Part shown: in pieces, positions 2 to 48,242 of the stretch
How the letters are laid out: each line of letters begins with the position of its first letter
Numbering within the stretch: the first letter of the stretch is position 1
Assembly: GCA_049322575.1 (NCBI GenBank)
Contig: JBMORQ010000003.1
Span: forward strand, 17,719 to 81,718
DNA length: 64,000 bases
Origin: Patescibacteria group bacterium
Lineage (GTDB): Bacteria; Patescibacteriota; Microgenomatia; UBA1400; PJMF01
Direction of reading: 5' to 3'
Notes under the pieces: model-generated
The model's input: the letters and a program-made list of their open reading frames with translations, nothing else
What the model was told of the DNA's origin: nothing
The model's database searches: none
Translations under genes and position numbers: made by a program

Positions 2-742
2 CTTTCTTTACCTAGAGATCTATGGTTAGCAGACTATCAAACAAAGATCAACGCGCTTCTTTATTACGGAGATCAACGAGACTCAAATAATCCTACAAGT
101 TTCCCCAAAGAAGTTATTGAAAACCTTACACAAACCAAGATAGATCACGTAGTAGTGATGAGTTTGGATAATCTTAAGGAACTAATTGATTTGCTCGGAG
201 GAGTAGAAATTGATGTGCCTGAGGCCTTCGTAGATTCTGAATTTCCAAGAAATGATGTTGATGTGAATATAGTTACAGATCCCAAGTTACTTTATGAGGT
301 TGTTAGTTTTCAAAAAGGCAAACAAATCATGGACGGAGAATTGGCTCTTAAATATATTCGCTCGCGTCACAGTCAAGATGAACAGGGCAATGACCTAGCA
401 AGAAACAATCGACAACAAGAGGTTGTCTATGCTATTTTTGCAAAAATCAGTAACCCTATGGATTTGATCAAGGATCCAGCTAGAGCAGGTAGACTTTTTA
501 ATTATTACCAAACAAATTTTGAAAAATACCTACCATTAAATAGCCTAATGGCCATTGGAAAGTCTGTTGTACCTGTGGCAAATCAAATCACCTTTGTTGG
601 TCATGGTCTAGACGAGTACGATGAGACAACTCAAGATGGATCGATATATCATCCAAACCCAAAGCTGTATAACAACCAATGGGTGTATATAATCAAAGAT
701 CAGACTGCTTTTAATCAAGAAATCAAAAATAAGCTTGAATAA
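2..742 (+). CDS. LytR-CpsA-Psr (LCP) family cell-envelope phosphotransferase, C-terminal part. The reading frame is open from the window edge, so the gene is 5'-truncated by the window.
   Basis: Translation carries LCP-domain signatures: 'IDHVVVMSLDNLKELIDLLGGVEIDVPEAF' and 'ALKYIRSRH...DLARNNRQQEV'. There is no in-frame stop between position 2 and the annotated GTG at 155. Confidence 0.8.
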   Translation, partial: LSLPRDLWLADYQTKINALLYYGDQRDSNNPTSFPKEVIENLTQTKIDHVVVMSLDNLKELIDLLGGVEIDVPEAFVDSEFPRNDVDVNIVTDPKLLYEVVSFQKGKQIMDGELALKYIRSRHSQDEQGNDLARNNRQQEVVYAIFAKISNPMDLIKDPARAGRLFNYYQTNFEKYLPLNSLMAIGKSVVPVANQITFVGHGLDEYDETTQDGSIYHPNPKLYNNQWVYIIKDQTAFNQEIKNKLE

Positions 743-1068: not shown

Positions 1069-2091
1069 ATGACTGAACCAAAAACACTCTTAGTAACAGG
1101 CGGAGCTGGTTTCATTGGCTCTAATTTCGTACATTATTGGCTAAAAAATCATCCACAAGATGAGGTAATTAACTTGGATTTACTCACATATGCCGGTAAT
1201 TTGTCTAGCTTAGTAGATATAGAAAGATTAGCAAATTATCACTTTGTGCAAGGTGACATTTCTGACAAACAACTGATTAACAGAATTATGCCTGATGTTA
1301 ATATTGTTGTTCATTTTGCGGCTGAGTCTCACGTCGACAGATCAATTATGGACCCAGAACTATTCACAAAAACCAACGTGCTAGGTACCCACGTCTTGCT
1401 TGAAGCTGCCAGAGATCATAAGATTGAGCGCTTTCACCACATTTCAACCGATGAGGTTTTTGGCTCACTGGAGTTGAATACTAGTATGAAATTTTCCGAA
1501 GAAACAAATTACGATCCTCGAAGTCCCTACTCTGCAAGCAAGGCTGCGTCGGATCATCTAGTGCGTGCATATGGAGAAACTTATGGTGTACCCTTTACCC
1601 TTACAAACTGCTCAAATAATTATGGAGAGTATCAATTTCCAGAGAAACTTTTTTCTTTAGCGATCACCAATCTTATAGAAGGCAAAAAAGTACCGGTATA
1701 CGGTGATGGCCTTAATGTGCGCGACTGGTTGTATGTACAGGATCATTGTAGAGCCATAGAACGGGTTTTAGAGGATGGCCACTTAGGTGAAACCTACTTG
1801 ATAGGTGGACTCAATAAAGACATTTCAAATCTGGAGATTGTCAAAATGATTTTGCAAATGATGGGTCAAGATGAATCAGCCATTGAATTTGTCAAAGATA
1901 GAGCTGGTCATGATCGTCGTTACGCTGTTGATTTCAGTAAAATTGAAAATGAGCTTGGCTGGAAACCTAGTGTTACATTAGAGGAAGGTTTGCAAAAAAC
2001 CATTAAATGGTACCAAGATCATCCAGAATGGTGGCAACCACTTAAGCATCAATTAAAAGATTATTACCAAGAACAGTATCAACTGCGCTAA
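1069..2091 (+). CDS. rmlB: dTDP-glucose 4,6-dehydratase
   Basis: 'LLVTGGAGFIGSNFV' Rossmann motif, the 'YSASKAASDHL' catalytic YxxxK, and the SDR-extended dehydratase family overall. ATG at 1069 is preceded by an AAGGAA RBS; the 988 start in the ORF track is an upstream extension. Confidence 0.9.
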   Translation: MTEPKTLLVTGGAGFIGSNFVHYWLKNHPQDEVINLDLLTYAGNLSSLVDIERLANYHFVQGDISDKQLINRIMPDVNIVVHFAAESHVDRSIMDPELFTKTNVLGTHVLLEAARDHKIERFHHISTDEVFGSLELNTSMKFSEETNYDPRSPYSASKAASDHLVRAYGETYGVPFTLTNCSNNYGEYQFPEKLFSLAITNLIEGKKVPVYGDGLNVRDWLYVQDHCRAIERVLEDGHLGETYLIGGLNKDISNLEIVKMILQMMGQDESAIEFVKDRAGHDRRYAVDFSKIENELGWKPSVTLEEGLQKTIKWYQDHPEWWQPLKHQLKDYYQEQYQLR

Positions 2092-2093
2092 AC

Positions 2094-2975
2094 ATGTCAG
2101 AGAAGATTCCACTAGCTGTGACTGGCACTAACGGGCTGGTAGGCTCCAGGTTTATTACTGATTTTGCCGATCGATATGACGTTTTATCACTTGATCGTAA
2201 CAACCCCATTCAGCCTGTCGATATTACTGACTCAGAAGTAGTTGAGGCTGTTCTGAGAGACTCAAAGGCTGAGTTTTTGGTACATTTTGCAGCTTTTACT
2301 GATGTAAACGCAGCCTGGCGACAGCAAGGCGATAAAAATGGTTTAGCATATCAAGTTAACGTAGCCGGTACCAATAATTTAGTTAGCGCTTGCGAGAAAT
2401 TTGGCAAAAGATTAATTCACGTTTCTACAGCCTACGTGTTCGATGGGAATTCTATTGACCAATATCGAGAAACCGACACTCCTCATGCAATTGAATGGTA
2501 CGGCCAGACGAAACTTTGGGCTGAGGAAATCATTCAAAGCTCCACAATTCCCTGGACGATATTTCGTATAGATCAACCATTTGCCAGTCAACCTCATCAA
2601 AAACTTGACATTGCTCACCGCTTAGCAAGCGGACTTCAGAACAACACTCTTTATCCCCAGTTCACCAATCACTATTTTGGGCCAACAATAATCGAGGATT
2701 TTGCCAAAACAATCGATTGGGCTATAAGAACTTCGGCAACAGGTCTCTATCATGCCTCAAGCGGTGAACGTTGGAGCGATTTCCAATTTGCCCAAGCAAT
2801 TAAAGACCAGCACCTGCTTTCCGGCGAGGTCAAACCAGGTAATCTCGATGAATATCTTAAAACACAACCACGGCCATATCAGAGAAACACAGCCCTTGAT
2901 TGCACAAAACTACATAGTCAAATTGACTTCACTCCACAAACCGTTCATCAAGCTATCTCCAAATTAAAATTTTAA
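2094..2975 (+). CDS. rmlD: dTDP-4-dehydrorhamnose reductase
   Basis: RmlD-like N-terminus 'IPLAVTGTNGLVGSRF', length about 290 aa, immediately downstream of rmlB (3-nt gap). Confidence 0.8.
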   Translation: MSEKIPLAVTGTNGLVGSRFITDFADRYDVLSLDRNNPIQPVDITDSEVVEAVLRDSKAEFLVHFAAFTDVNAAWRQQGDKNGLAYQVNVAGTNNLVSACEKFGKRLIHVSTAYVFDGNSIDQYRETDTPHAIEWYGQTKLWAEEIIQSSTIPWTIFRIDQPFASQPHQKLDIAHRLASGLQNNTLYPQFTNHYFGPTIIEDFAKTIDWAIRTSATGLYHASSGERWSDFQFAQAIKDQHLLSGEVKPGNLDEYLKTQPRPYQRNTALDCTKLHSQIDFTPQTVHQAISKLKF

Positions 2976-3034
2976 TATCTACTTTGGCGAGACTAAAGAG
3001 GTTTGACGATAGGGATAATTTTTCACTCACAAAC

Positions 3035-3697
3035 TTATTCCACCGGAACTCTGTTTTTTTCTCTCCATTGGCTAATTTGAGCGTGATTTCCTGTTAAAAG
3101 AATCTTTGGCACCCGCTTTCCAGAAAATATCTCTGGTCTAGTGTACTGAGGAAAAGCAGACCGACCAGGCTCTGCATGCGACTCGTCTTTATTGCTAAGT
3201 TCATTTCCCAATACTCCTGGAATCAAGCGGGAAACGGCGTCAATCATGACTGCAGCCGCTGGTTCACCGCCTGTTAGAACGAAATTACCGATTCTAATTT
3301 CCTCATCGACAAATAAGTCGGTCACCCGCTGATCGACACCTTCATAGTGGCCGCAAATTATTGTGAGAGAATCGAGCTTGGCAAAATCTCTTGCTATAGC
3401 TTGGTCGAAAATTTGCCCATCGGCCGATGTTAAAATAATTCGTTGATTTGCCTTGCCTTTTTGACCCTGCTGCCCAAGCGCTTTCAGAGCCGCAGCGATT
3501 GGTTCCACCTTCATGACCATTCCTGGACCACCACCATAAGGACGTTCATCTGTTGTCTGATGTTTATCAGTGGCAAAATCACGAATGTTGATGAGATTGA
3601 TTTCAATTTGTTTTTTAGCAACGGCTTTGCCTAGAATCGAGGTTTTTAATACCGATTGAAAATAGTCAGGAAAAAGTGTTAGAACATTTATCTTCAT
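3035..3697 (-). CDS. trmD: tRNA (guanine37-N1)-methyltransferase
   Basis: 'MKINVLTLFPDYF...' matches the TrmD N-terminus, with the 'ICGHYEGVDQRV' SPOUT knot motif and length 220 aa. Confidence 0.9.
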   Translation of the reverse strand: MKINVLTLFPDYFQSVLKTSILGKAVAKKQIEINLINIRDFATDKHQTTDERPYGGGPGMVMKVEPIAAALKALGQQGQKGKANQRIILTSADGQIFDQAIARDFAKLDSLTIICGHYEGVDQRVTDLFVDEEIRIGNFVLTGGEPAAAVMIDAVSRLIPGVLGNELSNKDESHAEPGRSAFPQYTRPEIFSGKRVPKILLTGNHAQISQWREKNRVPVE

Positions 3698-3756
3698 GAG
3701 GTAATTATATCGTGTTATAGTAGACTTGCGACAACAATCATTAATTTGGAGACATT

Positions 3757-4713
3757 ATGGAAAAACAAACTGTATTAATCACGGGAGGTACCGGATTTGC
3801 TGGTTCTCACTTGGTTGAGTCATTGTTACTTGAGAACACTCCTAAGTCGATTCACGTCACTAGTTTCGGGGGTAAGCCAGGCTTCGTCGCCAGCCTTTTG
3901 CCCGCTACCAACATCCATAAATTAGATCTTACAAACTACGAGGAAACAAAAACACTTCTATCTAAGATTCAGCCAACCCACATTTTCCACCTAGCAGCCA
4001 GTGCCTCAGTTGTAAGCAGTTTTGAGCAAGCGCGAGCCACCATGCAAAATAATCTTGATTTGCAGCTTAGCTTACTAGACGCAGTTAAAGACGTTTGTCC
4101 TGATGCCAGGATTTTAAATATTGGCAGTGCCTTAGAGTACGACTTTACAAAATCACGAGTTTTTGCCGAATCCGCTGAACTAGGCCCTGTTAGTCCTTAT
4201 GCCTTTTCAAAGGTTATGCAGGACATGTTGGCGGTTATGTACCAACGAAGTCATAAACTACACATCATCAGAACAAGGCCTTTTAACCATTTTGGAGAAC
4301 GACAAACACCAGGCTTCGTGGTGGCCGATTTTGCCAAAAAAATCGTTGAGATTGAAAAAGATCCAACTCGAGAAAAACTTATCACTGTTGGCAATCTGGA
4401 AGCTGTGAGGGATTTTTGTGACGTTAAAGATATGGTAGAGGCATATAAGCTCTTAATGGATAAGGGTGCTGAAGGTGAAGTTTATAATATCGGTTCGGGT
4501 GTTGGTACCTCAATCAAACAGATTTTAGACGAGCTCATCAGTCTTACTAGTCTTAATATCCAGGTCGAGATTGATCCGGAGAAATTTCGCCCTCTTGATG
4601 TTCCGACAGTTATTGCAGATAATGAGAAAATTAAAAACTTAGGCTGGTCACCGTCCAGGCATCTATCAGAAACATTATTAAGAACTCTTAATTGGTGGAG
4701 GAATAACTCATGA
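3757..4713 (+). CDS. NAD-dependent epimerase/dehydratase, GDP-4-keto-6-deoxy-D-mannose reductase-like (Rmd/GDP-fucose-synthase-like)
   Basis: 'VLITGGTGFAGSHL' Rossmann motif and 'YAFSKVMQD' YxxxK. Its stop overlaps the start of gmd (4710-4713), suggesting a functional Gmd plus reductase pair. Confidence 0.7.
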   Translation: MEKQTVLITGGTGFAGSHLVESLLLENTPKSIHVTSFGGKPGFVASLLPATNIHKLDLTNYEETKTLLSKIQPTHIFHLAASASVVSSFEQARATMQNNLDLQLSLLDAVKDVCPDARILNIGSALEYDFTKSRVFAESAELGPVSPYAFSKVMQDMLAVMYQRSHKLHIIRTRPFNHFGERQTPGFVVADFAKKIVEIEKDPTREKLITVGNLEAVRDFCDVKDMVEAYKLLMDKGAEGEVYNIGSGVGTSIKQILDELISLTSLNIQVEIDPEKFRPLDVPTVIADNEKIKNLGWSPSRHLSETLLRTLNWWRNNS

Positions 4714-5687
4714 AAAAGGCATTTATCACAGGAATAACGGGTCAAGATGGTTCATACCTGGCAGAATTACTCCTTGAAAAGGGATACAAAGTCTATGGTC
4801 TAACCAGACGAACCAGTACCCAAAATTTTGCTCGTATTGAGGGTATCATGCATCACCCTAATCTTGAACTAATCTCGGGTGATTTAATCGATCAGCACTC
4901 TCTCACCTTTGCTCTCAAGGAGATTCAACCAGATGAAATCTATAACTTGGCAGCTCAATCGTTCGTCAAGGCTTCCTGGGAACAACCGGTTTTAACTGGA
5001 GAATACACCGCTCTTGGAGTTACTAGAGTTTTAGAGGCCATGCGCTTGGCATGTCCTAATGCCAAGTTCTATCAAGCAAGCTCAAGCGAAATGTTTGGCA
5101 AGGTCCGCGAAGTACCTCAAACAGTAAACACACCATTCTATCCACGTTCGCCTTATGGCGTTGCCAAAGTTTATGGCCACTGGATCACGGTAAATTACCG
5201 AGAGTCATACGATATGTTTGCTGTCTCGGGGATTCTTTTTAACCACGAGTCACCTAGGCGTGGATTAGAGTTTGTCACCAGAAAAATAGCCAATGGCATC
5301 GCTCGTGTCAAGCTTGGCAAACAATCACATGTTGAGCTTGGCAACCTTGAAGCTAAGCGTGACTGGGGTTACGCCAAAGATTATGTTGAGGCAATGTGGC
5401 TAATGCTACAGCAAGACAAGCCAGACGACTATGTAGTGGCAACAGGTGAAACCCATTCCGTTAGAGAATTCTTGGAATTGTCCTGCAGTTTTGCCGGTAT
5501 TGCTGACTGGCAAAGTGTTTATAAACACAATCCTAAATATGATCGACCTGCAGAGGTCGATCTTTTGATTGGAGATCCAAATAAAGCAAAACAGACACTC
5601 AACTGGCGACCCTCAGTAGATTTTCCAGGATTGGTGAAGTTGATGGTTGAGGCTGAGCTGGAGTTGGAAAAAAATAAGAACAACTAA
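4710..5687 (+). CDS. gmd: GDP-mannose 4,6-dehydratase
   Basis: 'KKAFITGITGQDGSYLAELLLEKGYKVYGLTRRTS' and 'YGVAKVYGHWITVNYRESY' are near-canonical Gmd blocks. Confidence 0.9.
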   Translation: MKKAFITGITGQDGSYLAELLLEKGYKVYGLTRRTSTQNFARIEGIMHHPNLELISGDLIDQHSLTFALKEIQPDEIYNLAAQSFVKASWEQPVLTGEYTALGVTRVLEAMRLACPNAKFYQASSSEMFGKVREVPQTVNTPFYPRSPYGVAKVYGHWITVNYRESYDMFAVSGILFNHESPRRGLEFVTRKIANGIARVKLGKQSHVELGNLEAKRDWGYAKDYVEAMWLMLQQDKPDDYVVATGETHSVREFLELSCSFAGIADWQSVYKHNPKYDRPAEVDLLIGDPNKAKQTLNWRPSVDFPGLVKLMVEAELELEKNKNN

Positions 5688-5699
5688 CTGAGGATACGG

Positions 5700-6863
5700 A
5701 TGAAATTAGCCACTATCATTATTCCCACCTACAATGAAAGTGATAACATTGAGCATACTCTCAATTGCTTATTTGAGGTTTTCTCTACAATTACCACCTG
5801 GAAGATGAGTATTCTTGTAGTAGATGACTCATCACCCGATGGTACATCCAAGATTGTTCAAGATTTACAAAAGACACACAACAATCTTCACTTACTAATC
5901 AACAAAACAAAATCGGGACTAGGTGGTGCTTATCTCAAGGGAATGGATTACGCTTTCAACAAAATTGGTAGTGATGTTGCTTTTGAATTCGATGCTGATT
6001 TATCTCACGATCCAAAAAAAATCCCAGAATTCTTGAAAAAACTAGATCAGGGTTTTGATCTGGTTATGGGATCTCGCTATATACCCGGGGGGAGTATTCC
6101 AGAAAATTGGGGTTGGCATCGTAAGTTTCTGAGTGTGGTCGGAAATTTATTTATCATGTTAGTCATGACAAATTTTAAAATTCACGACTGGACAGGAGGA
6201 TATCGAGCTATCAGGAAAGAGGTCTTTCAAGCCGTCTCGAAAGATTTAACCGATGCTAAATTTGCCGGTTATACCTTTCAGGTTGGTTTCTTAAATAGCA
6301 CTTTAAATAATGGCTTCAAAGTTGCCGAGGTTCCTTTCCATTTCAAAGACAGGACAAGAGGGGTGAGTAAAATGGGTCCTGAGTACCTCAAAAGCATCAT
6401 GATTTTTTTAATAAAGACGCGATTGGAACAAATCGTTAAAAGCAGAATTTTCAAGTTTGTGACGGTCGGTGGTTTAACAGCAATGTTGCAGCTGGTAGCT
6501 TTACAAATAATGCGCAATCTCTTGCCCTATCAAATTGCTTTCTTTTTGGCAATTGAGATGGCGGTTTTAGGTAATTTTGTTCTCAGCAACCTCTGGACAT
6601 TTGCCGATAGAAAACTATCAGTCAGTCAATACCCACTTAAATTTATCCAATTTAATTTGGCCTCTGCTGGTTCGATATTAATCCAGCAAACCATCGCCTT
6701 CGTTGGCGAGAGATTTATCGGTCTAAAAGATCTTTTCATGGTGCCAATTCTAGGTTTTAGAGTCGATACTGGCCTGATCTTTGCTGTGGTCGGAATATTA
6801 ATTGGTATGTTTTGGAACTTCTTTGCTTACAGTACCATCATTTGGAAAAAGAACAAATCATAA
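5700..6863 (+). CDS. GT2 polyprenyl-phosphate sugar synthase (Dpm1/GtrB-like) fused to a C-terminal GtrA-like flippase domain
   Basis: N-terminal 'IIIPTYNESDNI...VVDDSSPDGT' GT-A DxD region. C-terminal 'FKFVTVGGLTAMLQLVALQIM' plus three to four TM helices is typical of the GtrA family. Confidence 0.8.
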   Translation: MKLATIIIPTYNESDNIEHTLNCLFEVFSTITTWKMSILVVDDSSPDGTSKIVQDLQKTHNNLHLLINKTKSGLGGAYLKGMDYAFNKIGSDVAFEFDADLSHDPKKIPEFLKKLDQGFDLVMGSRYIPGGSIPENWGWHRKFLSVVGNLFIMLVMTNFKIHDWTGGYRAIRKEVFQAVSKDLTDAKFAGYTFQVGFLNSTLNNGFKVAEVPFHFKDRTRGVSKMGPEYLKSIMIFLIKTRLEQIVKSRIFKFVTVGGLTAMLQLVALQIMRNLLPYQIAFFLAIEMAVLGNFVLSNLWTFADRKLSVSQYPLKFIQFNLASAGSILIQQTIAFVGERFIGLKDLFMVPILGFRVDTGLIFAVVGILIGMFWNFFAYSTIIWKKNKS

Positions 6864-6864
6864 A

Positions 6865-8415
6865 ATGACTGCCTTAAAAAATACTTTTTACCAACGGAAA
6901 ATTTCTGTTATTAGTATTTTACTTGCCACAATCTTAATTTTCGCTGGTTTTTTTCGTCTCTATAACTTGAGGGGGTCATTGCAATTCCAAGGCGATCAGG
7001 GTAGAGATGCCATCATTGTCGCCAAAATGTTTCTGGAACGAGACATGGTGTTTATTGGCCCAGTGACAAGTGTTGGTAATATGTATCTCGGACCTCTCTA
7101 TTACTATTTCATGTTGCCATTTTTATTTATTAGTTTTCCCAGCCCAATGGGGCCGGTTTATGCGGTGGCGTTTTTAGGCATATTGACAGTTTTTCTAACC
7201 TACTGGCTTGGTCAAGAGATGATTGGAAAAAAAGCATCTATGATAGCTGCTGCTTTTATGGCTTTTTCAGCTACAGCCACTCTTTACTCTCGTTTCAGTT
7301 GGAATCCAAATCCAGCTCCACTAGTCTCATTATTGATGATTTATTCTCTCTTCAAAGCTTTAAAAAAGAATGTTTTTTATTGGATTTTAGTGGCTGTCTT
7401 TTTTAGTATTTTGATTCAACTTCATTACTTAACACTTTTATCAGCCGTAGCATTGGCAATCATTTGGGTTTGGCAATTGATTTCAATCATCAAGAAGATG
7501 AGGGATCCCTTGATAAAAAAAGGCAATATAAACCAGTTTATCATTGCAACTTTTACCTCTGTCGTTGTAGTAATCATGTCGATGGCACCGCTAATTCTTT
7601 TTGACATTAAACACCAAGGCTTAAACGCAAAGGCTTTCCAATCACTCATTAGTCACAAAGAAAACTTTACTTACAGTGAACCTGTCTCAATTGTTCAGAA
7701 ATTGGCTGAAACTGTTGCCGAAACTGAGGGAAGAAGCATGCATGTTCTTTTCGAGATCACCATCGGCAAAAACCGACCACTCAATCGACTGCTTTACTTA
7801 TCCGTTTTTGTCGTTTTGGCTTTCATAGTTCTAAAAAGAAAAGATCGACAGTTCTTTCTTGGAGAAGCCATCGTTATTACTTTTCTCTTAACTGGTATCA
7901 TCGGCACTGCTTTTTATCAGCATACCATTTTCGATCATTATATCGCTTATCTTTTTCCGGTAACCTTCTTGATATATGGCATTGTTGGCAACTGGCTCTG
8001 CACAAGGATTTGGGGCAAGCTTATTGTTATGTTATTCGCTCTAGTTTTCCTCAGCTACAATCTGCCTCGTATGCCGTTAAAAAGTCTAGGGTGGCAAGTT
8101 GATGACATCGAGCGTACCAGCCAAGAAATTCTAAAACGGGTCGCAGTTGGTGATAAATACAATATTGTGTTACTTTCAGAATCAAAAGATCATTACGGCC
8201 AGAATTACCGATATTTTTTAGTGGCGAGTGATAAACCCCCTGTCGAGATCGAGAACGGGGCTGATGCTGATAAACTATTTATCATCAATGAGGAAAAAAA
8301 GACAAAAGATGTCACCGGACTTCCAATCTATGATCTTGTAGTCTTTCCAAACAAGACAGTCAAGGATTTTTTTGTGATCGATAACGGCCCGGAAATTACC
8401 CTTTTAGAAAAATAA
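6865..8415 (+). CDS. GT-C membrane glycosyltransferase (ArnT/PMT-like, GT39/GT83-type)
   Basis: At least ten TM helices. An N-terminal lumenal loop 'QGDQGRDAIIVAKMF' resembles the DE/DD motif loop of ArnT/PMT enzymes. ATG at 6865 follows the stop of the upstream GT2 gene. Confidence 0.6.
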   Translation: MTALKNTFYQRKISVISILLATILIFAGFFRLYNLRGSLQFQGDQGRDAIIVAKMFLERDMVFIGPVTSVGNMYLGPLYYYFMLPFLFISFPSPMGPVYAVAFLGILTVFLTYWLGQEMIGKKASMIAAAFMAFSATATLYSRFSWNPNPAPLVSLLMIYSLFKALKKNVFYWILVAVFFSILIQLHYLTLLSAVALAIIWVWQLISIIKKMRDPLIKKGNINQFIIATFTSVVVVIMSMAPLILFDIKHQGLNAKAFQSLISHKENFTYSEPVSIVQKLAETVAETEGRSMHVLFEITIGKNRPLNRLLYLSVFVVLAFIVLKRKDRQFFLGEAIVITFLLTGIIGTAFYQHTIFDHYIAYLFPVTFLIYGIVGNWLCTRIWGKLIVMLFALVFLSYNLPRMPLKSLGWQVDDIERTSQEILKRVAVGDKYNIVLLSESKDHYGQNYRYFLVASDKPPVEIENGADADKLFIINEEKKTKDVTGLPIYDLVVFPNKTVKDFFVIDNGPEITLLEK

Positions 8416-8453
8416 GCATTAACAGCAATTTTTAATTACAGTAAGATAAATAT

Positions 8454-9206
8454 ATGTCACAACCATTCTTATCAGTCATCATTCCGTCTTACAACGAGCT
8501 GAACAATCTCAACAGAGGAGTTTTAGAACAAGTTAATGACTATCTCAAGAAGCAAGACTATTCATGGGAAGTGATCTTAACTGATGATGGATCTACTGAT
8601 GGGACCTTAGAAAAATTAGTGGAGTTTTGCCAGCAACACCCAAATTTCCATGTACTTGCCAACGACCACGCCGGAAAAGGGCCAACCGTCAAAAGTGGCA
8701 TGTTATCGGCACAGGGTGAGTGGAGACTTTTCACTGATTTTGATCAATCTACCCCTATTGGTGAGGTTAAAAAACTACTAAATTTTACCAACCAATATGA
8801 TATTGTACTTGGTTCAAGAGAGGGAGATGGTTCGAAACGAGATACTGAACCATTTTATCGACACATAATGGGTAGAGGTTTTAATCTATTAGTACAGTTA
8901 TTGGCGGTTCCAGGACTTAGGGATACTCAATGTGGATTTAAGATCTTTTCTGCTCGAGCAACCAACAAACTTTTTGGGTCGTTGTATATTTATGGTCAAG
9001 CGAAATCGCGTAAAGATGCATTCACCGGGGCGTTCGATGTTGAATTGCTGTTTTTGGCCAAGAAGTATGGATACAAGTTTATTGAGGTACCCATTTTTTG
9101 GAAACACTATAAATCCGACCGAGTAAGTCCTATTCGTGATTCCCTAAGAATGCTGCTTGATATTGTTAAAATTCGATTGGCAGATCTATCAGGTAAATAC
9201 AATTAA
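8454..9206 (+). CDS. GT2 glycosyltransferase, Dpm1-like polyprenyl-phosphate hexose synthase
   Basis: 'SVIIPSYNELNNL', 'ILTDDGSTDGT' and a 'TDFDQSTP' DxD-like block; 250 aa. Confidence 0.8.
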   Translation: MSQPFLSVIIPSYNELNNLNRGVLEQVNDYLKKQDYSWEVILTDDGSTDGTLEKLVEFCQQHPNFHVLANDHAGKGPTVKSGMLSAQGEWRLFTDFDQSTPIGEVKKLLNFTNQYDIVLGSREGDGSKRDTEPFYRHIMGRGFNLLVQLLAVPGLRDTQCGFKIFSARATNKLFGSLYIYGQAKSRKDAFTGAFDVELLFLAKKYGYKFIEVPIFWKHYKSDRVSPIRDSLRMLLDIVKIRLADLSGKYN

Positions 9207-10507
9207 TGTCAAAAAATAAATTCTGGTTTTTCTTATTGTTTGCGCTCTTCTTTTGCCTGATACTATTATATAGCTGGTTTAGTTACGGTATGACGGCTCC
9301 CAATCTAGTCTTGTTAAAAGCTGATTGGTTTTGGCAGTTTCAAAGTCAGATGTGGCGGACATTTTTTAATGATCGTCAACTAACTGCTAAGATTTATTTT
9401 TTAATTATCTCACTATTGTTTGTGGTCTATTTTGGATTACTGAAATTTGTTTCAAGATTGAAGGAGACTCTTTCACACAAAACCATCCTTTCTCTCTTGT
9501 CTGTGACTCTATTACCACTGCTTTTTAGTTACAATATGTTGTCATATGACGTCTTCAATTACATTTTTAACGCTCGGATGGTTGTCGAATATCAAGCAAA
9601 CCCCCACATTAAGGTGGCACTAGATTTCCCAGATGACCCATGGACAAGGTTTATGCACAACACACATACCCCTGCTCCGTACTGGTACGGATGGACGGCT
9701 TTTTCATTGGTGCCTTATGTTGTTGGCATGGACAAATTTGCGCTAACTTGGTTAGTCTTCCGCAGTCTGAGTATACTAAGCGTCTTTTTACTCTATTGGA
9801 TACTGAATCTTTTGCATAAAAAAATCTATTCAAGGCCTTTGGATGCCTTTCAAATAATTTTAGTTTTTTTTAACCCTCTTTTTTTGATAGAAATTGTTAG
9901 TAATTCTCATAACGATTTGTGGATGATCGTACCCGCAATCGCATCGCTCTATTTGTTAACTACCCATAAATCAGAAAATATTTCTCTAATAAAAATTTTT
10001 TGCTCAGTTTTACTATTGTTGTTTTCGGTTTCAACTAAACAAGCAACTCTAGTTTTGTTGCCAATTTGGGCGTTACTATTCTTCAAAAACAACATCCTCA
10101 TGTTAAAAATTGCTCAAGCTAATTGGCCAGTATTTGTTAAAAAAATAATCGTAATCGCAACGCACAAAATTTCCGAGTTAATCAATTACTGGTGGCCAAC
10201 TTTCGCATCACTTTTACTGTTTATTCCGCTGTTGACTGATCGTTCACAACAATTTCATCCCTGGTATCTAACGTGGTCACTTGTCTGGTTACCTCTAATC
10301 AGGATCAGCACTTGGAAAATAATCTTGGTGGGTTTTTCTATCAGCTCTCTTTATCGATATTTGCCCTGGATTTTGGCTGGTGGTTATGGAGAAGAGGTGA
10401 TCCATCAGCAAAAAATGATAACCTGGCTACCCAGCCTAATTTTGCTTATGGCAACTTACCTTTGGCAACGTAGGCAAAACAATACAAATCTAACACGGAT
10501 TGAGTAA
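9206..10507 (+). CDS. Polytopic membrane protein, possibly a GT-C/DUF2029-like glycosyltransferase
   Basis: 433 aa with at least ten predicted TM helices, start overlapping the upstream GT2 stop. No soluble domain is recognised; the function is inferred from context only. Confidence 0.45.
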   Translation: MSKNKFWFFLLFALFFCLILLYSWFSYGMTAPNLVLLKADWFWQFQSQMWRTFFNDRQLTAKIYFLIISLLFVVYFGLLKFVSRLKETLSHKTILSLLSVTLLPLLFSYNMLSYDVFNYIFNARMVVEYQANPHIKVALDFPDDPWTRFMHNTHTPAPYWYGWTAFSLVPYVVGMDKFALTWLVFRSLSILSVFLLYWILNLLHKKIYSRPLDAFQIILVFFNPLFLIEIVSNSHNDLWMIVPAIASLYLLTTHKSENISLIKIFCSVLLLLFSVSTKQATLVLLPIWALLFFKNNILMLKIAQANWPVFVKKIIVIATHKISELINYWWPTFASLLLFIPLLTDRSQQFHPWYLTWSLVWLPLIRISTWKIILVGFSISSLYRYLPWILAGGYGEEVIHQQKMITWLPSLILLMATYLWQRRQNNTNLTRIE

Positions 10508-10510
10508 ATC

Positions 10511-12076
10511 ATGTCTAAAAAGAAAATCAGCTTCGACACTGACAAAGTACCTATTTTTTCGTCGATAGCAATTGTTTTGGTGGTAGTTTTCTATTTGATC
10601 ATTCACCTAGCCAAATTAACCAACTTGCCAGTCTTTGCTGATGAGGCAATTTATATCCGCTGGACACAGCTAATCATGGATGACCCTGGTCGCTATTTAT
10701 TCTTCCCAATGAACGATGGTAAACCACCGCTTCACATGTGGCTAATGTTACCTTTCCAATACTTGTTTAACGATCAGCTTTACGCAGGTCGTTTTCTGTC
10801 AGTCTTAGTTGGCTTAGTGCAAATATTTGTACTGGCTGCCTTGGTCAGGTCCCTAGGAGGCAGGAAAAAAGCAACCTACCTGTCGATGATTTTTGGCTCT
10901 ATCGTACCTTTCTGGTATCTTCACCACAGAATGGCACTAATCGACGCCCTGATGACCTTGTTCTTAAGCCTCTGTCTACTCTTCCTGATAAAATTAAGCC
11001 AAAAAATAACCACCATACACGCGATTTTTGCTGGTTTGTTTTTTGGATTGGCTTTACTTTCAAAATTGCCCGCAATTTTATTTGTTTTTGCTTTTTCGAT
11101 TCTGGCGATACTGCTAAAGAAAAGAACAGAGTTGCCGCGTTATCTCTTTTTTACTGCGTTTAGTTTACTTTTTGGTCTAGTAGTTTTTGCATCTCTGAAA
11201 ATTCATCCTGCTTTTGGTCAGCTTTTTGCGAGGGGCGGGGATTTTCTATATCCTCTAAATGATTTTTTTACTGGTAAAACAATCCTTAGCTCTTTTGGCA
11301 ATCTACTAAGGTTTTCCGATTACATCTTGAGTTACCAGACTTGGCCTTTAGTTGTTTTTAGCTTTATTGGACTTTTTCAGCCCAAAACTCAAAAACAACA
11401 GTTCGTTCTCTGGCTATTAACACTAAGTTTTTTGGCTCCAATCGTCCTTTTGGGAAAAGTTGTTTATCCGCGTTATTTGCTACCGGTGGCAATTTTTATT
11501 ACCACTTCCGCTGTGATTGCCTTACAGGGCGTCTCCGAGACCGTCGCAAATCTATCTTCGATGCCAAAAAAAGCGGCTCTGAGTTTGCTAACCGTTTTCC
11601 TTATCTCAATAACAACTCAGCAGTCTGTTAATTTTATATATAACTCGATTAATGATTATGAGAAAATCCCTTTCAATATAGCTGATAAATCCCAGTATCT
11701 TTACGAATGGTCTGCGGGCTATGGCATCAAAGAAGTAACCTCATTTATTCAAGAAGCAGCTAGCAACCAGCGGGTTAGTATGGCCACTGAGGGTTATTTT
11801 GGAACGCTACCTGACGGCATTCTTATGTACTTGCATGCCAGAGACGTTTCCAATATTTTCGTGGAAGGAATCGGCCAACCAGTTATGCAGATTCCCGATA
11901 GTTTCGTAAAACAAGCAGCTGGATCAGATAGGGTCTTGCTCTTGGTCAACTCTCATCGACTAAAAATGTCTATGGATCAGTCAACTCTCTTGCGCGAATA
12001 TTGCAGACCTGCTAACCCTAATAGCTCTGATGGTCCCCAGTGTCTACAGCTTTGGGATATTACTCAAAAAATTTAA
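10511..12076 (+). CDS. GT-C membrane glycosyltransferase (PMT_2/ArnT-like)
   Basis: 'FADEAIYIRWTQLIMDDPGRYLFFPMNDGKPPLHMWLM' matches the conserved first lumenal loop of the ArnT/PMT_2 family; multiple TM helices; 521 aa. Confidence 0.7.
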   Translation: MSKKKISFDTDKVPIFSSIAIVLVVVFYLIIHLAKLTNLPVFADEAIYIRWTQLIMDDPGRYLFFPMNDGKPPLHMWLMLPFQYLFNDQLYAGRFLSVLVGLVQIFVLAALVRSLGGRKKATYLSMIFGSIVPFWYLHHRMALIDALMTLFLSLCLLFLIKLSQKITTIHAIFAGLFFGLALLSKLPAILFVFAFSILAILLKKRTELPRYLFFTAFSLLFGLVVFASLKIHPAFGQLFARGGDFLYPLNDFFTGKTILSSFGNLLRFSDYILSYQTWPLVVFSFIGLFQPKTQKQQFVLWLLTLSFLAPIVLLGKVVYPRYLLPVAIFITTSAVIALQGVSETVANLSSMPKKAALSLLTVFLISITTQQSVNFIYNSINDYEKIPFNIADKSQYLYEWSAGYGIKEVTSFIQEAASNQRVSMATEGYFGTLPDGILMYLHARDVSNIFVEGIGQPVMQIPDSFVKQAAGSDRVLLLVNSHRLKMSMDQSTLLREYCRPANPNSSDGPQCLQLWDITQKI

Positions 12077-12110: not shown

Positions 12111-12764
12111 ATGCAATGGAATGAAAACCAAGTAATCTCATACAATCATTTACCATTACTCAAACATGCTCTAGCAACCCCACTTACAAGCATCCTGATC
12201 AACGCTGAGCAAGCCCTGGAAAGAACAAAACCCTCGGAGAAACAATTTCAACCCTTAAATGCCATTTATCACCAAACTCGACATGCTGTATCTATTCTCA
12301 AGATGGCTGATCACACCAGTCCATCTTTTACTAAATTCTCTTTAGAACATCTTCTAGGAGACTTAAAAATGATGTTTCCTCCAACTACAAACCGACAGCT
12401 TTTAGTTTTTTACCAGGTTAGTCATCAGGTCTTGATCGTCGGACCAAAAACTCATTTTCTAGAAGCATTAATTTGTTTGATTAACAACGCCTTTGAATCG
12501 TATCATCAAGAAAAAAACCAACTAGTCATGGTTAGTGCTATTAAAAAACAATTGTTTTTGGAAATTAAGATTGTTGACGCTGGCAGAGGTATAAATAAAA
12601 GCCTCAGGTCTCAACCAAGACTCAAATCTACTAAAGAAAATCACCTGGGAATTGGTTTGGCTTATGTTAAACACATCCTAACTTGGTACTTCCATGCTGA
12701 GCTTAAGATTGATACCAGGAAGAGGCTCGGCACAACCATTACAATTAACCTTCCTCTAAATTGA
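12111..12764 (+). CDS. Sensor histidine kinase core (HisKA plus HATPase_c) with no TM or sensor domain
   Basis: H-box 'LKHALATPLTSI', an N-box-like 'LINNAFESY', and a G-box region 'IVDAGRGI'. ATG at 12111 lies after the stop of the upstream gene. Confidence 0.6.
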   Translation: MQWNENQVISYNHLPLLKHALATPLTSILINAEQALERTKPSEKQFQPLNAIYHQTRHAVSILKMADHTSPSFTKFSLEHLLGDLKMMFPPTTNRQLLVFYQVSHQVLIVGPKTHFLEALICLINNAFESYHQEKNQLVMVSAIKKQLFLEIKIVDAGRGINKSLRSQPRLKSTKENHLGIGLAYVKHILTWYFHAELKIDTRKRLGTTITINLPLN

Positions 12765-12890: not shown

Positions 12891-13661
12891 TTAACCAGCA
12901 AGCTCAACATCAAAAAAGCGATTTGATTGCCCCTGCTGAGTATAAGCACCATTGACTGAAGTCTGTTTTAAGTTTTGAGGTTCAGCCAAATAATAACCAT
13001 AGCCTCTGCTTGTCTGGATATACTTGCCAAAATTACCTAGACTCATACGAAGACGCCTAATATACACATCTATTGTTGAGCTAGTTGGTTGATCCTCCGT
13101 ACCAGGCCAGAGAGTTTGAACAATTTTTTCCCTGGACAAAATACTGTTGCGATTTTGCAATAAAAGCCTCAACAGTTGTGTCTCGGTGTATGATAGACGC
13201 AATTTACCCTGAGGTGTTTGTAAAACGCCGATCCGGTAGTAAAGGCTAAAATCACCAAAAGTAATTACTGGAACTAATTGTTTCTTTTTGCTTAGTAAAG
13301 ATTGAAGTCTGAGGGCAAATTCTTTAAGTGAGAACGGTTTGGCTAAATATTCATCAGCACCTAACGACAAACCCATGATCCGATCAAGCAAATGAGATCT
13401 CTGAGTTAAAATAAAAATCATGGTCTCAGGGAAGGTATGATTGATGTGACTGACCAGTTCCAAGCCGTCAGATTCACCAAGTTGACGATCTACAATAACC
13501 AAGTCAAAAGTTGATTCTTTTATGATATCAAATGCTCTCTCAAGACAATAGGCCTGGGCAACAAAATAATTTTTGCTAGTTAGATAGTTCCTCAGAGTGT
13601 TAGAAAGAACCAGGTCATCCTCAACTAGTAAGATTTTTCTGCTGTACAAAATCTTTGTCAT
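12891..13661 (-). CDS. OmpR-family response regulator (receiver plus winged-helix)
   Basis: 'KILLVEDDLVLSNTL', 'DLVIVDRQLGESDG', and a C-terminal 'VYIRRLRMSLG...YGY' trans_reg_C block. Start taken at MTKILYS (13661); the ORF-track start at 13763 is an extension. Confidence 0.8.
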   Translation of the reverse strand: MTKILYSRKILLVEDDLVLSNTLRNYLTSKNYFVAQAYCLERAFDIIKESTFDLVIVDRQLGESDGLELVSHINHTFPETMIFILTQRSHLLDRIMGLSLGADEYLAKPFSLKEFALRLQSLLSKKKQLVPVITFGDFSLYYRIGVLQTPQGKLRLSYTETQLLRLLLQNRNSILSREKIVQTLWPGTEDQPTSSTIDVYIRRLRMSLGNFGKYIQTSRGYGYYLAEPQNLKQTSVNGAYTQQGQSNRFFDVELAG

Positions 13662-13851
13662 GACTGTCAATCTGATGTAAAATTTGATATACTTGCGGCC
13701 GCTTATAATCGCGGCTGGGTCGGCTTTGCCGATGGACTTACCACGATAGGGCATTCTGCTCACACTTGCTTGCAGAGAAGATCATAGATCAGCAATCTTA
13801 AAATAACATTAAATTTTCGTAGTCAAATCAAACTCGAGAATTTGCCACGAC

Positions 13852-32121: not shown

Positions 32122-32838
32122 TTAAACTGATAAAGTTTTTTGGCGAACAAAAGTGGTTGCCTGATACATCGACTCAAATGTTCCAGTATCGAACCATTGA
32201 CCATTAACAAAGGCCACGTCTAATTTGCCTTCTTGTAGATACAAATTGTTGATATCGGTAATTTCTATCTCGCCACGAGAAGATGGTTTGAGCGATTTTG
32301 CCTTTTCCACCACCGTGTTATCGTAGATATATAATCCAGTGACAGCATAATCTGATTTAGGTTGAGTTGGTTTTTCCTCGATCGAGATTGCTTTGCGGTT
32401 TTGATCAAACTGCACCACTCCAAACCTCTCAGGATCACTCACTTTTTTGGCAAAAACCCGACCACCTTGCTCAAAACTCTGAATTGCCTGTGAAAAGTCG
32501 TCTTCGTATAGGTTGTCGCCCAAAATTAAGGTCACATTATCTTGCCCGATAAATTTTTCTCCTATCAGAAAAGCTTGAGCCAAACCTTCTGGCTTCTCCT
32601 GGATTTCGTAAACAAAATCACAGCCAAAATTGCTTCCGCTACCAAGCAACTTTAAAAAATCGCCAGCGTTGTTAGGTGCCACGATTATCATCACGTCATG
32701 AATACCCGCCTTAAGCAGAGTTTCAAGCGGAAAATAGATCATTGGCTTATCGTAGATTGGCAGCAATTGTTTACTCGTGACACGAGTTAAGGGGTGTAAA
32801 CGAGTACCGCTTCCACCAGCTAAGATGATTCCCTTCAT
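32122..32838 (-). CDS. Sugar-1-phosphate nucleotidyltransferase (glucose-1-phosphate thymidylyltransferase-like, short form)
   Basis: '[39 protein letters not shown]' matches the RmlA/NTP_transferase N-terminus; AAGGAAGG RBS. Confidence 0.75.
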
Positions 32839-34573: not shown

Positions 34574-35968
34574 CTATTGATTCATACCACTGGTTTTATC
34601 AGCGGCTTCTTTAACGTTTGCGGGTTTTTTTCTCGCTTCAACTTCTTCGATAAAAGCGTAGTTAATTAGACGTGATACCAATAGATCAAGAACAGCAACA
34701 ATCCAATACCATTTACACAGCCAAACCAGCAGCCAAAAACCTCCTGAGTAACAGTCACACTGGCGCAACCAGTAGAACAGGCCAATGGAAAGCAGGGCTA
34801 TGACCACAGCCACCCAGTGCTTTGTCTGAGTACGCTTCTTCTTGAAATAGTTGTCGAATAACATGGTCACTAATAGTTGCAGGATAAGTAGTATCCAAGG
34901 AACATAGAAACGCCAGCTCACACAAACTCCACTTGTGGCACCGGCTACCTCACCAGTTGGTTGAGAGGTTGGTTGCACCTGCGCTGATTGAGTCGATTCA
35001 TCGGTTGTTTCACCTAAAACTTGCCCGCCTTGACCAACTGGGCGAACGTCAGGCGCCAAGACCTGTCCAGATGTGATAGGAATTTCAGCACTATTAGACC
35101 TAGGGCCAGGAGCACAATCGTTAACTCCAAAAATCTGGAAAGAGTACGCTTGACCTGCTGAAAGCTGAGTAACTGTGTATGATGTAGTATTGCCAATATT
35201 GGTACTTCCGTATGATGCACCATCAGATATTCTAGTAAAAACTAGGGCATAGTGAGTCACTGGGCTGACTGACGTCCAGTTAAGGGTTACAGCATTCGGT
35301 CCGGCACCAGCTACACTCAAAGAAGGCGCGGAGGTAGGAACTTCTGCCTCACAAACAGGTGGCTTGGCTGGATCAGTGTTGGTGGAGCCGGGATTACCAC
35401 CAGGAGGATTCCCCGGATTGCCAGGATTTCCCGGGTTAGAGGGTCCATCACAAGTGATTCTGACAGCAAAATCAAAAACTGTCCGAGAACGTTGAAACTC
35501 GTTACCAGCTAAAATGTCAAAATTAGCATTCCAGGTAAAAACTCTTGTTGAATTGGGAGCCAGACTACCGAGTGAAATATTATCAGTGTCGTATAAGTCT
35601 TGGTATGAGCGATCGCTGGTGGCAACACCCGATATCTGTGTACCGAAATAATCTGTATTACCAGAATAAATGGCCGCAAACATTCTCTCAGCCAGGTTAA
35701 CCGAGCTTTCTGGGGTTGTGTCTGTGGCGTTGAGCAGCAGATTGCATGTTTCGTCACTATCATTATTGGTAATAGTTAATGTCTGAGTGAAATTGTCTCC
35801 AGGCATCATACCACTCTCATTGAATAGTGGAGTATCAGCTGGGGAAATACTACACGGACCATTGTTAGCACAAGTCACAGTTAAATCTGTGCCCGCCTCA
35901 GCTGAAACAACCAAGTTAAGAAAAAATGACAACGAAACTAGAAGTGATAAAAATATTTTTCTAATCAT
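34574..35968 (-). CDS. Cell-surface protein: signal peptide, TasA/camelysin-like N-domain, PGN-repeat linker, FN3 domain, Ser/Thr/Gln-rich stalk, and a C-terminal polytopic (three to four TM) Cys/Trp-rich membrane anchor
   Basis: 'LFNESGMMPGDNFTQTLTITNN' resembles the TasA-family 'kPGD...N.G' block. 'NPGNPGNPGNPPGGNPG' linker. An FN3-like 'VTLNWTSVSPVTHYALVF...YSFQIFGVND' region. Hydrophobic tail 'WILLILQLLVTMLF ... AVVIALLSIGLFYWL ... FWLLVWLCKWYWIVAVLDLLV'. Confidence 0.6.
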   Translation of the reverse strand: MIRKIFLSLLVSLSFFLNLVVSAEAGTDLTVTCANNGPCSISPADTPLFNESGMMPGDNFTQTLTITNNDSDETCNLLLNATDTTPESSVNLAERMFAAIYSGNTDYFGTQISGVATSDRSYQDLYDTDNISLGSLAPNSTRVFTWNANFDILAGNEFQRSRTVFDFAVRITCDGPSNPGNPGNPGNPPGGNPGSTNTDPAKPPVCEAEVPTSAPSLSVAGAGPNAVTLNWTSVSPVTHYALVFTRISDGASYGSTNIGNTTSYTVTQLSAGQAYSFQIFGVNDCAPGPRSNSAEIPITSGQVLAPDVRPVGQGGQVLGETTDESTQSAQVQPTSQPTGEVAGATSGVCVSWRFYVPWILLILQLLVTMLFDNYFKKKRTQTKHWVAVVIALLSIGLFYWLRQCDCYSGGFWLLVWLCKWYWIVAVLDLLVSRLINYAFIEEVEARKKPANVKEAADKTSGMNQ

Positions 35969-39459: not shown

Positions 39460-39595
39460 GGTTAAAGCTAGTTTAGCTTAACTTGCTAACATTTAGCTTA
39501 CATTTTTATTATTGCTTTTTAAAACTTGGCCTTTTGCCGGTTATTGCCTATGTGGCGGGGACAATCGCCCCGCCACAAGCAATTTAACAAAATCA

Positions 39596-44929: not shown

Positions 44930-45402
44930 CTCCTTTCTATTATTTACTGAGCTGACTGCTATGTTTAACAGTAACTCGCAGCAACCTAAGTAGCTTAACT
45001 AAAGCTTGCTCTTAGTATGCCTGTGTCTTAGAGTGTCAGGTTTATGTGTGTCTTAAAGAAAAGGCGTGTAAAGATCGTGTAAGAGGATTAATCGATGTTT
45101 TTAATAGGCAACCTTGCCGATATTGACTGGCTGCCTAAACGAACTATTTAAAAATCGAATTTTCTAACGAAAAACTGATTTTTGTGAGAGAAGTCATTCT
45201 CGAACGCAGAAATGATAAGGCTACTAAGTTTGATCAAACGACCTTAGTATTAATAAAAAGTAGCTTTGTGCTGCTGCTCTCTACACATCCTTTACATCTG
45301 TTAAAAAGGCCTATATATCGCAAAATATACATATTTAATACACTAAAAATCACTTTGATAGGGTTGATAGATCTGGTAGAGCATGATAGTATCAACAAAC
45401 TT

Positions 45403-48219: not shown

Positions 48220-48242
48220 TCAAAAAATAAATTGATATTAAA

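Follow-up and report, generated by a model that had tools for sequence, protein, structure and literature searches.

We analyzed a window of 64,000 nt from contig JBMORQ010000003.1 of a Patescibacteria metagenome-assembled genome (MAG); all positions are coordinates of this whole window. Between 1069 and 12076, ten closely spaced open reading frames (ORFs) lie on the + strand with a single - strand gene amid them, and this locus is probably an envelope-glycosylation module working across the membrane and conserved in one large clade of Patescibacteria. The reading is built on protein families, fold, motifs and synteny, from which the donor sugars, their flipping and the acceptor are inferred. 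A preliminary description of this DNA had proposed that a polyprenyl-phosphate-sugar synthase, a GtrA-type module and extracytoplasmic glycosyltransferases of the GT-C type act together here; at the level of protein families this logic holds, since the synthase, the PF04138 domain and the GT-C features of GTC3 and GTC1 were all found. The genes which it had placed in the interval were all recovered with Pfam and NCBIfam, on the + strand and in the order given. They are listed below, with an RmlA-like gene located elsewhere in the window.

1069-2091 (+): RmlB, dTDP-glucose 4,6-dehydratase, 340 aa; TIGR01181, 482.3 bits for a cut-off of 365; same name at NCBI
2094-2975 (+): RmlD-family 4-keto reductase (dTDP-4-dehydro-6-deoxyhexose reductase); PF04321 (RmlD_sub_bind), 164.9 bits
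3757-4713 (+): Rmd-like GDP-4-keto-6-deoxy-D-mannose reductase, an extended short-chain dehydrogenase/reductase (SDR), 318 aa; 2PK3, E 1.4e-66
4710-5687 (+): Gmd, GDP-mannose 4,6-dehydratase; TIGR01472, 441.6 bits for a cut-off of 415
5700-6863 (+): GT2-GtrA, polyprenyl-phosphate-sugar synthase, 387 aa; PF00535, 100.7 bits; PF04138, 54.2 bits
5712-6233 (+): GT2 domain of GT2-GtrA; PF00535
6453-6845 (+): four-helix membrane domain of GT2-GtrA, of the type shared by GtrA and dolichyl-phosphate (Dol-P) mannose synthase (DPMS), residues 252-382; PF04138 (GtrA_DPMS_TM), 54.2 bits for a cut-off of 26.1
6865-8415 (+), 6865 being the true start: GTC1, GT-C-fold transferase, ArnT/PMT_2-like, 516 aa; PMT_2, 24.2 bits
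8454-9206 (+): GT2b, soluble GT2 of the Dol-P-hexose synthase class (ALG5/DPG-synthase-like), 250 aa; PF00535, 80.6 bits
9206-10507 (+): MptA/B-family polytopic membrane protein, 433 aa; precomputed Pfam PF26314 (MptA_B_family)
10511-12076 (+): GTC3, GT-C transferase of the PMT_2/PMT (ArnT) family, 521 aa; PMT_2, 64.9 bits for a cut-off of 26.1; PMT, 31.1 bits for a cut-off of 22.7
32122-32838 (-): RmlA-like glucose-1-phosphate thymidylyltransferase, short form, 238 aa; TIGR01207, 340.3 bits for a cut-off of 360.65; PF00483, 230 bits

Gene order and its conservation

From rmd to the histidine kinase gene that follows GTC3, the gaps between genes are -4, 12, 1, 38, -1, 3 and 34 nt, an operon-like packing in which the rmd-like gene and gmd overlap by 4 nt and the stop of GT2b overlaps the start of the MptA/B-like gene (MptAB) by 1 nt. 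A scan for promoters and terminators was uninformative on operon boundaries, the sites being no more numerous than in shuffled sequences.

Proteins identical to GTC1 and to the MptA/B-like protein are recorded at NCBI for a "Patescibacteria group bacterium" MAG. The conservation of this organization was analyzed in related loci. In a scan with one genome per species, 162 genomes encode a relative of the 433-aa MptA/B-like protein; 81 distinct related loci were examined, 80 of these from the scan, and the counts given here refer to the related loci with enough flanking sequence for the genes concerned. Where lineage labels are given for the related records, they are mostly Pacebacteria, Woesebacteria and Microgenomates. 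Many of the loci L004-L083 are titled "uncultured Pseudomonadales", "Vitreimonas sp.", "Limisphaerales" or "Methylococcaceae", which are probably wrong taxonomic labels of deposited MAGs.

The core of the locus is nearly invariant: GT2b and MptAB are adjacent in all 80 loci, the order GTC1-GT2b-MptAB is found in 74 of 75, and rmd-gmd-GT2GtrA in 67 of 69. The tight gaps, together with an order GT2GtrA-GTC1-GT2b-MptAB which recurs in 67 of 70 related loci, place the arrangement far beyond chance. The MptAB-GTC3 adjacency is kept in 63 of 73 cases. Upstream, a rmlB-(rmlC)-rmlD-trmD(-) block is present in about half of the related loci, and a ugd-type gene (UDPG_MGDP_dh) lies between trmD and rmd in 62 of 63, giving the order ugd-rmd-gmd; the corresponding interval of the window (3698-3756) is without it. 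A gene for a LytR-CpsA-Psr (LCP) glycopolymer transferase adjoins the module in several different arrangements. Two loci (L042 and L061) are devoid of rmd, gmd and GT2-GtrA together and have kept LCP-GTC1-GT2b-MptAB, so that GTC1 is not strictly dependent on the neighbouring fusion synthase.

Synthases and membrane transferases

GT2-GtrA has the architecture of a type-III DPMS, in which a four-helix GtrA-like transmembrane (TM) domain is attached to a monomeric GT2 catalytic domain. Residues 5-340 align with residues 26-349 of the chain in 5MLZ, the DPMS of Pyrococcus furiosus (PfDPMS), with an E value of 5.2e-37 over the catalytic domain, the interface helices and TM helices 1-3, and the TM domain alone leads to 5MLZ (E 1.1e-4). 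The five best NCBIfam matches are all prenyl-phosphate or Dol-P sugar synthases (PgfS, ArnC, PpgS, AglJ and a Dol-P-hexose transferase). The motifs D98-A-D100-L-S-H103-D-P and S125-R126-Y127 and the residues R141, S145, Q264 and N292 are conserved in 72 orthologues.

The strict definition of type-III DPMS includes the motif 89-DADxQHPP-96, and the strict family is reported only from hyperthermophilic archaea (PMC12992685). GT2-GtrA and its 72 orthologues depart from this motif, reading DADLSHDP (Gln93 to Ser, Pro95 to Asp). In type-III enzymes Arg117 (SRY), Arg131, Ser135 and Lys178 (KIL) bind the phosphate of Dol-P, and Asn248, Asn277 and Arg/Asn341 form a polar pocket with a gating Phe338 (PMC12992685); in PfDPMS, Asp89 and His94 contact O2/O3 of mannose and Lys178 contacts O4/O6. 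D89, H94, R117, R131 and S135 correspond to D98, H103, R126, R141 and S145, all kept in the 72 orthologues, while Asn248 is replaced by Gln264 and Asn277 corresponds to Asn292, each at least 95% conserved. The Lys178 position is not Lys, the residue aligned there being Thr or Gln according to where the gaps are set; TM helix 4, with the F338 and R341 positions, is left unaligned by phmmer. By its sequence, GT2-GtrA is predicted to work like a type-III DPMS without being a strict member, and conservation of the Asp89 and His94 equivalents, the contacts to O2/O3, fits a manno-configured donor. The GtrB-GtrA fusion initially described as uncommon is present but is no novelty, being the architecture of 5MLZ, from which Pfam PF04138 takes its name, and being found in 67 of 70 related loci.

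GT2b has no hydrophobic segment. It carries the motifs D-F-D, G-S-R-E, D-T-Q-C-G-F-K and F-D-V-E, its best solved relative is again 5MLZ (E 1.2e-15), followed by ArnC, and its NCBI name is dolichyl-phosphate beta-glucosyltransferase. For both GT2s the top NCBIfam match is the protein-glycosylation enzyme PgfS, far under its cut-off. GT2b and the GT2 domain of the fusion are only 26% identical, which rejects a recent duplication and makes the earlier proposal of two different lipid-linked sugars a reasonable one. The preliminary description as a whole would have suffered had the GT2 enzymes classified as cytoplasmic polymer synthases; they do not, the Dol-P-mannose synthase 5MLZ being the best solved relative of both.

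Among the membrane proteins GTC3, named ArnT family glycosyltransferase at NCBI, passes both PMT models. Its TM1 (residues 8-43) follows a K-rich N-terminus and is directly followed by the DE motif F-A-D44-E45-A-I-Y (D44-E45 at 10640-10645), at least 95% conserved in 69 orthologues; the protein ends with a conserved extracytoplasmic domain. GT-C enzymes of the PMT/ArnT type have such a motif in loop 1 as their hallmark. GTC1 has a variant of it, the invariant F41-x-G-D44-Q-G-R-D48 located just after TM1 (6985-7008), and a C-terminal alpha/beta domain. Its orthologues mostly carry PF13231 (PMT_2) and, where named by NCBI, are assigned to the GT39 family. The AlphaFold2 (AF2) model of GTC1 has a predicted local distance difference test score (pLDDT) of 88.6, and its top 36 Foldseek matches are all GT-C enzymes; it matches ArnT (5F15) with an E value of 3e-7 and a TM-score of 0.56, ALG12 and ALG9 are among its matches, and WaaL comes only 50th (probability 0.38). 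No MIR domain was found by Pfam in GTC1 or GTC3, which fits the bacterial PMT_2/ArnT type.

The 433-aa protein situated between GT2b and GTC3 is probably a third GT-C enzyme. PF26314 is precomputed on it and on 120 of the 120 homologues listed, within a family of more than 600 relatives, and is unmarked (E<=1e-5) on two orthologues; relatives with a source name are from Patescibacteria or carry evidently wrong labels. The AF2 model (pLDDT 89.8, predicted TM-score 0.89) has about 11-12 membrane helices, and its Foldseek matches with a probability above 0.5 are all GT-C proteins: ALG3 (0.93), AglB (0.80), ArnT (0.69), AglB (0.63) and Pmt1-Pmt2 (0.54). An invariant D115-V-F-N-Y119 (9548-9562) starts the helix 115-127, after the third TM segment (91-107). 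In PimE the catalytic D58 is at the tip of the helix JM1, hydrogen-bonded to Y62; in MptB the putative catalytic residue is D136, and the HS3-4 loop is among the most conserved regions. D115 occupies a chain position similar to that of MptB D136, an Asp after the third hydrophobic segment. The size and topology of MptA/MptB (about 516-591 aa, 15 hydrophobic segments) are not those of the 433-aa protein, and NCBIfam gives no MptB match.

For none of the three membrane proteins was a match in PDB obtained, either by sequence or by profile. To judge from their sequences, GTC1, the MptA/B-like protein and GTC3 belong to three unrelated GT-C families and are not recent paralogues; comparison of GTC1 with GTC3 likewise rejected them as recent duplicates. 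The locus had been described as two synthase/GT-C pairs. It holds instead two synthases and three GT-C candidates, the third being the "polytopic membrane protein" of that description, which carries PF26314. By Pfam, Foldseek with the GTC1 model and PF26314, the GT-C candidates do not classify as unrelated transporters, an outcome that would have counted against that description.

Sugar supply, mechanism and acceptor

The Rmd-like SDR aligns over residues 6-315 of 318 with 2PK3, the GDP-6-deoxy-D-lyxo-4-hexulose reductase of Aneurinibacillus, and its second-best solved relative is the GDP-6-deoxy-D-mannose reductase Rmd of Pseudomonas (6X3B, E 2e-29). Together with Gmd, which scores above the TIGR01472 cut-off, it bears out the GDP-6-deoxyhexose supply proposed previously; from the sequences, the product should be GDP-D-rhamnose or its 4-epimer GDP-6-deoxy-D-talose. 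A UDP-glucuronate decarboxylase (UXS) function, considered for this SDR in view of the ugd neighbour in other loci, was rejected (about 1e-12 for UXS against about 1e-66 for Rmd).

The supply of dTDP-rhamnose, also proposed previously, is incomplete in the window. RmlB passes TIGR01181, but the RmlD-like protein reaches 153 bits for a TIGR01214 cut-off of 224, and a tblastn search with a related RmlC gave no match for rmlC anywhere in the 64-kb window. Among solved structures, those of RmlD proteins match the RmlD-like protein best (3SC6, E 5.7e-22), its NCBI name being only "SDR family oxidoreductase". The RmlA-like gene reported at 32122 is real and unlinked to the glycan cluster, with 340 bits for a TIGR01207 cut-off of 360.65. 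The window thus holds no full RmlABCD set: RmlB passes its model, RmlA and RmlD remain under theirs and RmlC is missing. Most related loci are also without rmlC, orthologues being found in only 6 of them.

The following mechanism can be proposed. In the cytoplasm, Gmd and Rmd would turn GDP-mannose into GDP-D-rhamnose or its 4-epimer, and RmlB with the RmlD-family reductase would yield a dTDP-6-deoxyhexose. At the inner face of the membrane the two GT2s would each load one sugar onto polyprenyl phosphate, the DPM1/DPMS-like GT2-GtrA taking a GDP-linked sugar of manno configuration and the ALG5-like GT2b most likely a UDP-hexose. The fused four-helix GtrA-like domain would then move the lipid-linked sugar to the outer face, where GTC1, the MptA/B-like protein and GTC3 would transfer sugars onto the acceptor. 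This domain may serve both donors; in L. lactis a single GtrA protein serves three synthase/GT-C pairs (PMC8035078).

The sugar loaded by GT2-GtrA could even be D-rhamnose (6-deoxy-D-mannose) instead of mannose, a suggestion drawn from gene context and residues to which we give only a small chance. It is conceivable because rmd-gmd-GT2GtrA are contiguous in 67 of 69 loci and lost together in two, because the locus has no other enzyme able to consume a GDP-sugar, and because the contacts to O2/O3 are kept while Lys178, which contacts O4/O6, is not Lys. The last point was set aside as weak evidence for a 6-deoxy donor, the alignment being ambiguous there; eukaryotic DPM1 is likewise not known to have Lys at this position. 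Polyprenyl-phosphate-D-rhamnose would, if the suggestion is true, be a lipid-monophosphate 6-deoxyhexose donor for one GT-C enzyme, and we know of no description of this class of donors.

The 64-kb window encodes no other glycosyltransferase, no Wzx or Wzy, no ABC exporter and no initiating phosphoglycosyltransferase; it may therefore be mainly the GT-C enzymes that build the glycan, or the glycan may decorate a polymer made elsewhere. The recurrent neighbours of the module, i.e. LCP, the rml genes and a small membrane ORF, suggest as acceptor a glycopolymer, linked to the wall or anchored in the membrane, rather than one site on a protein.

Protein O-glycosylation, on the model of actinobacterial Ppm1 and Pmt, is a different main job which the locus could have, though we hold it to be unlikely. 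With polyprenyl-phosphate mannose as donor, GTC3 would start on Ser/Thr and the other GT-C enzymes would extend the chain, on proteins that are secreted or exposed at the surface (pili, adhesins or the S-layer, for example). GTC3 does score above the cut-offs of PMT and PMT_2 and contains the DE motif, the synthase is DPM1/DPMS-like, PgfS (far under its cut-off) is the top NCBIfam match of both GT2s, and the window has genes for large surface proteins. Against this, the PMT_2-type GT-C enzymes of Gram-positive bacteria mostly modify teichoic acids and wall polysaccharides (PMC8035078), the NCBI name of GTC3 is ArnT family and not PMT, no MIR domain was matched in Pfam, and the recurrent neighbours are LCP and the rml genes. 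A membrane-anchored lipoglycan comparable to corynebacterial and mycobacterial lipomannan appears a little less probable still. The MptA/B-like enzyme would here polymerize a backbone from polyprenyl-phosphate hexose on a glycolipid primer, and the other GT-C enzymes would branch or cap it. The protein concerned, however, is 433 aa long as against the 558-591 aa and 15 hydrophobic segments of MptB, has no NCBIfam MptB match and is coupled to a synthase, GT2b, named as a glucosyl and not a mannosyl transferase, in a window without PimA/PimB-type primer genes. In favour of this reading are the Pfam MptA_B_family assignment, the position of D115 similar to that of MptB D136, and the fact that GT-C enzymes alone could make the whole glycan in a locus without a cytoplasmic polymer glycosyltransferase.

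A last alternative, very improbable, is that the GT2s are common cytoplasmic transferases with an undecaprenyl-diphosphate-linked repeat unit as substrate, the polytopic proteins being polymerases, ligases or transporters and not GT-C enzymes. Both GT2s have Dol-P or undecaprenyl-phosphate monosaccharide synthases as their nearest solved relatives, GT2-GtrA matches DPMS through its membrane domain, the top 36 structural matches of GTC1 are all GT-C proteins with WaaL 50th (probability 0.38), and the window lacks genes for an initiating phosphoglycosyltransferase, Wzx and Wzy, even if GT2 is a very broad family, GT2b weakly matches the EpsD, PgaC and TuaG models, and no solved structure matches the MptA/B-like protein significantly.

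Several observations weigh against the envelope-glycosylation module itself. Flippase function of GtrA-like domains is a hypothesis in the literature (PMC12992685, PMC8035078). Pairing of synthases with transferases is ambiguous, GTC1-GT2b-MptAB being found without GT2-GtrA in two related loci, and the sugar supply is partly unaccounted for, rmlC and ugd both being missing from the window. The PMT_2 score of GTC1, 24.2 bits, is just under the cut-off of 26.1. As for the 433-aa protein, the Foldseek E value of about 0.4 supports the GT-C fold weakly, its family profile gave nothing against PDB or, with hhalign, against the GTC1 family, and local Pfam-A gave no PF26314 match for any of 42 family members, the Pfam versions being different.

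Neighbouring genes, significance and comparison with known systems

The genes flanking or interrupting the locus are the following.

2-742 (+): LCP glycopolymer-transferase gene, 3' part; PF03816, 64.3 bits; TIGR00350, 51 bits
780-1034 (+): 84-aa protein with one hydrophobic segment; without Pfam match
3035-3697 (-): TrmD, tRNA (m1G37) methyltransferase; NF000648, 273 bits for a cut-off of 220
12111-12764 (+): small soluble histidine kinase, 217 aa, without sensor or TM domain; HisKA, HATPase_c; NCBI name sensor histidine kinase
12891-13763 (-): OmpR/PhoB-type response regulator, convergent; Response_reg, Trans_reg_C; PhoB-type models about 130 bits, under their cut-offs

The LCP gene is open in frame 2 from nt 2, its 5' part lying outside the window. 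The 84-aa ORF between LCP and rmlB is kept in related loci, with nine tblastn matches, seven of them at E<=1e-7, at 42-71% identity. The trmD gene is a housekeeping gene embedded in the locus and outside the pathway. It is isolated on the other strand amid the glycan genes, with position and orientation kept in 32 of 59 related loci; its usual setting is the rpsP-rimM-trmD-rplS operon. The histidine kinase gene lies directly 3' of GTC3 in 32 of 63 related loci, and the kinase is possibly a regulator of the locus. The response regulator was found in 48 of 63; its 290-aa form has no match in the protein collection, and translation probably begins downstream of the GTG listed as its start.

Farther along the window, the arrangement of the genes at 34574-40408 (-) recalls SipW-TasA fibre operons:

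39596-40408 (-): camelysin/TasA-like Peptidase_M73 protein
38884-39459 (-): S26 signal peptidase
35961-38900 (-): 979-aa protein without Pfam match
34574-35968 (-): fn3 protein

At 45184-50746 (+) an 800-aa protein without family match follows a 1011-aa protein that combines three PKD domains with a C-terminal GH115 domain; both are likely to be large surface proteins. A second sugar-phosphate nucleotidyltransferase is encoded at 52738-55947 (-), its best match, to mannose-1-phosphate guanylyltransferase, being weak (67 bits), near an alpha-glucan phosphorylase (TIGR02094, 528 bits); this region is a possible source of nucleoside-diphosphate hexose for the glycan cluster. A 144-aa protein at 51710-52144 (-) contains an RNA recognition motif of eukaryotic type (RRM_1, 86 bits).

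The few Patescibacteria that have been cultivated live attached to host cells, which gives surface chemistry a central place in their biology. In most of the 81 related loci, a block of seven to about fifteen genes has kept its order in spite of very small genomes, which makes it a strong candidate for producing a major surface glycan of the clade. The archaeal design of a synthase fused to a GtrA-like domain, moreover, has close bacterial relatives just outside its published strict definition, and these bear on the question whether such enzymes flip their own product. Every part of the cluster is of a known kind; as a whole it is a previously undiscussed instance in an understudied phylum, which offers a handle on the envelope and enzymes that can be tested. 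In the literature that was searched, no paper connects Patescibacteria with GT-C, ArnT or dolichyl-phosphate enzymes.

The locus was compared with several characterized systems. Gram-positive three-component systems (CsbB/GtcA/YfhO, GtlA/GtcA/GtlB, CsdAB/CsdCD/CsdEF with CflA in L. lactis, GacI/GacJ/GacK/GacL in Streptococcus pyogenes; PMC8035078) share with it a GT-A-fold polyprenyl-phosphate-sugar synthase, a GtrA-type module and extracytoplasmic GT-C enzymes of the PMT_2 type. In those systems several synthase/GT-C sets may share one GtrA flippase, and GacI is, like the soluble GT2b, a synthase without TM helices (PMC8035078). The present locus differs in that its GtrA module is fused to one synthase, that three GT-C enzymes of three unrelated families stand beside two synthases, that genes for GDP-D-rhamnose and dTDP-6-deoxyhexose are bundled with them, and that the host is a Patescibacterium without a characterized wall polymer. 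P. furiosus DPMS (5MLZ, 5MM0, 5MM1, 9EP0; PMC5526996, PMC12992685) likewise combines a GT2 domain, interface helices and a four-helix GtrA-like domain in one chain, and the equivalents of SRY, R131, S135, D89, H94 and N277 are kept in GT2-GtrA; the DADLSHDP motif, the absence of Lys at position 178, the replacement of N248 by a conserved Gln, and a host which is bacterial and not a hyperthermophile set the two apart.

In the actinobacterial polyprenyl-phosphate-mannose pathway (Ppm1; MptA, MptB, PimE; Pmt), a hexose linked to a lipid monophosphate also feeds several GT-C enzymes, and an MptA/B-family member is found there as here together with a PMT-type enzyme with a DE motif. The 433-aa protein resembles PimE (D58/Y62) in that a juxtamembrane helix begins with D115 and has a Tyr four positions further on. 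Unlike the actinobacterial enzymes, it lacks an NCBIfam MptB match and is shorter by about 130-160 residues, the adjacent synthase is by name ALG5-like and not Ppm1-like, and there is no phosphatidylinositol-mannoside context. The pathway of the eukaryotic endoplasmic reticulum (DPM1, ALG5; ALG3/9/12, ALG6/8/10) also sets a mannose-type and a glucose-type Dol-P-hexose synthase beside several GT-C enzymes; in structure the MptA/B-like model comes closest, if weakly, to ALG3, and the matches of GTC1 include ALG12 and ALG9. The window has no oligosaccharyltransferase gene and no genes for assembly of a lipid-diphosphate oligosaccharide, and the resemblance to this lumenal pathway is one of logic, not orthology. 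Finally, the overlapping pair of Gmd and an Rmd-like reductase recalls the GDP-D-rhamnose pathway of Aneurinibacillus thermoaerophilus and Pseudomonas aeruginosa. To our knowledge GDP-D-rhamnose is used in the known cases by cytoplasmic transferases, whereas the only transferases which this locus offers as candidate users are lipid-phosphate-sugar synthases.

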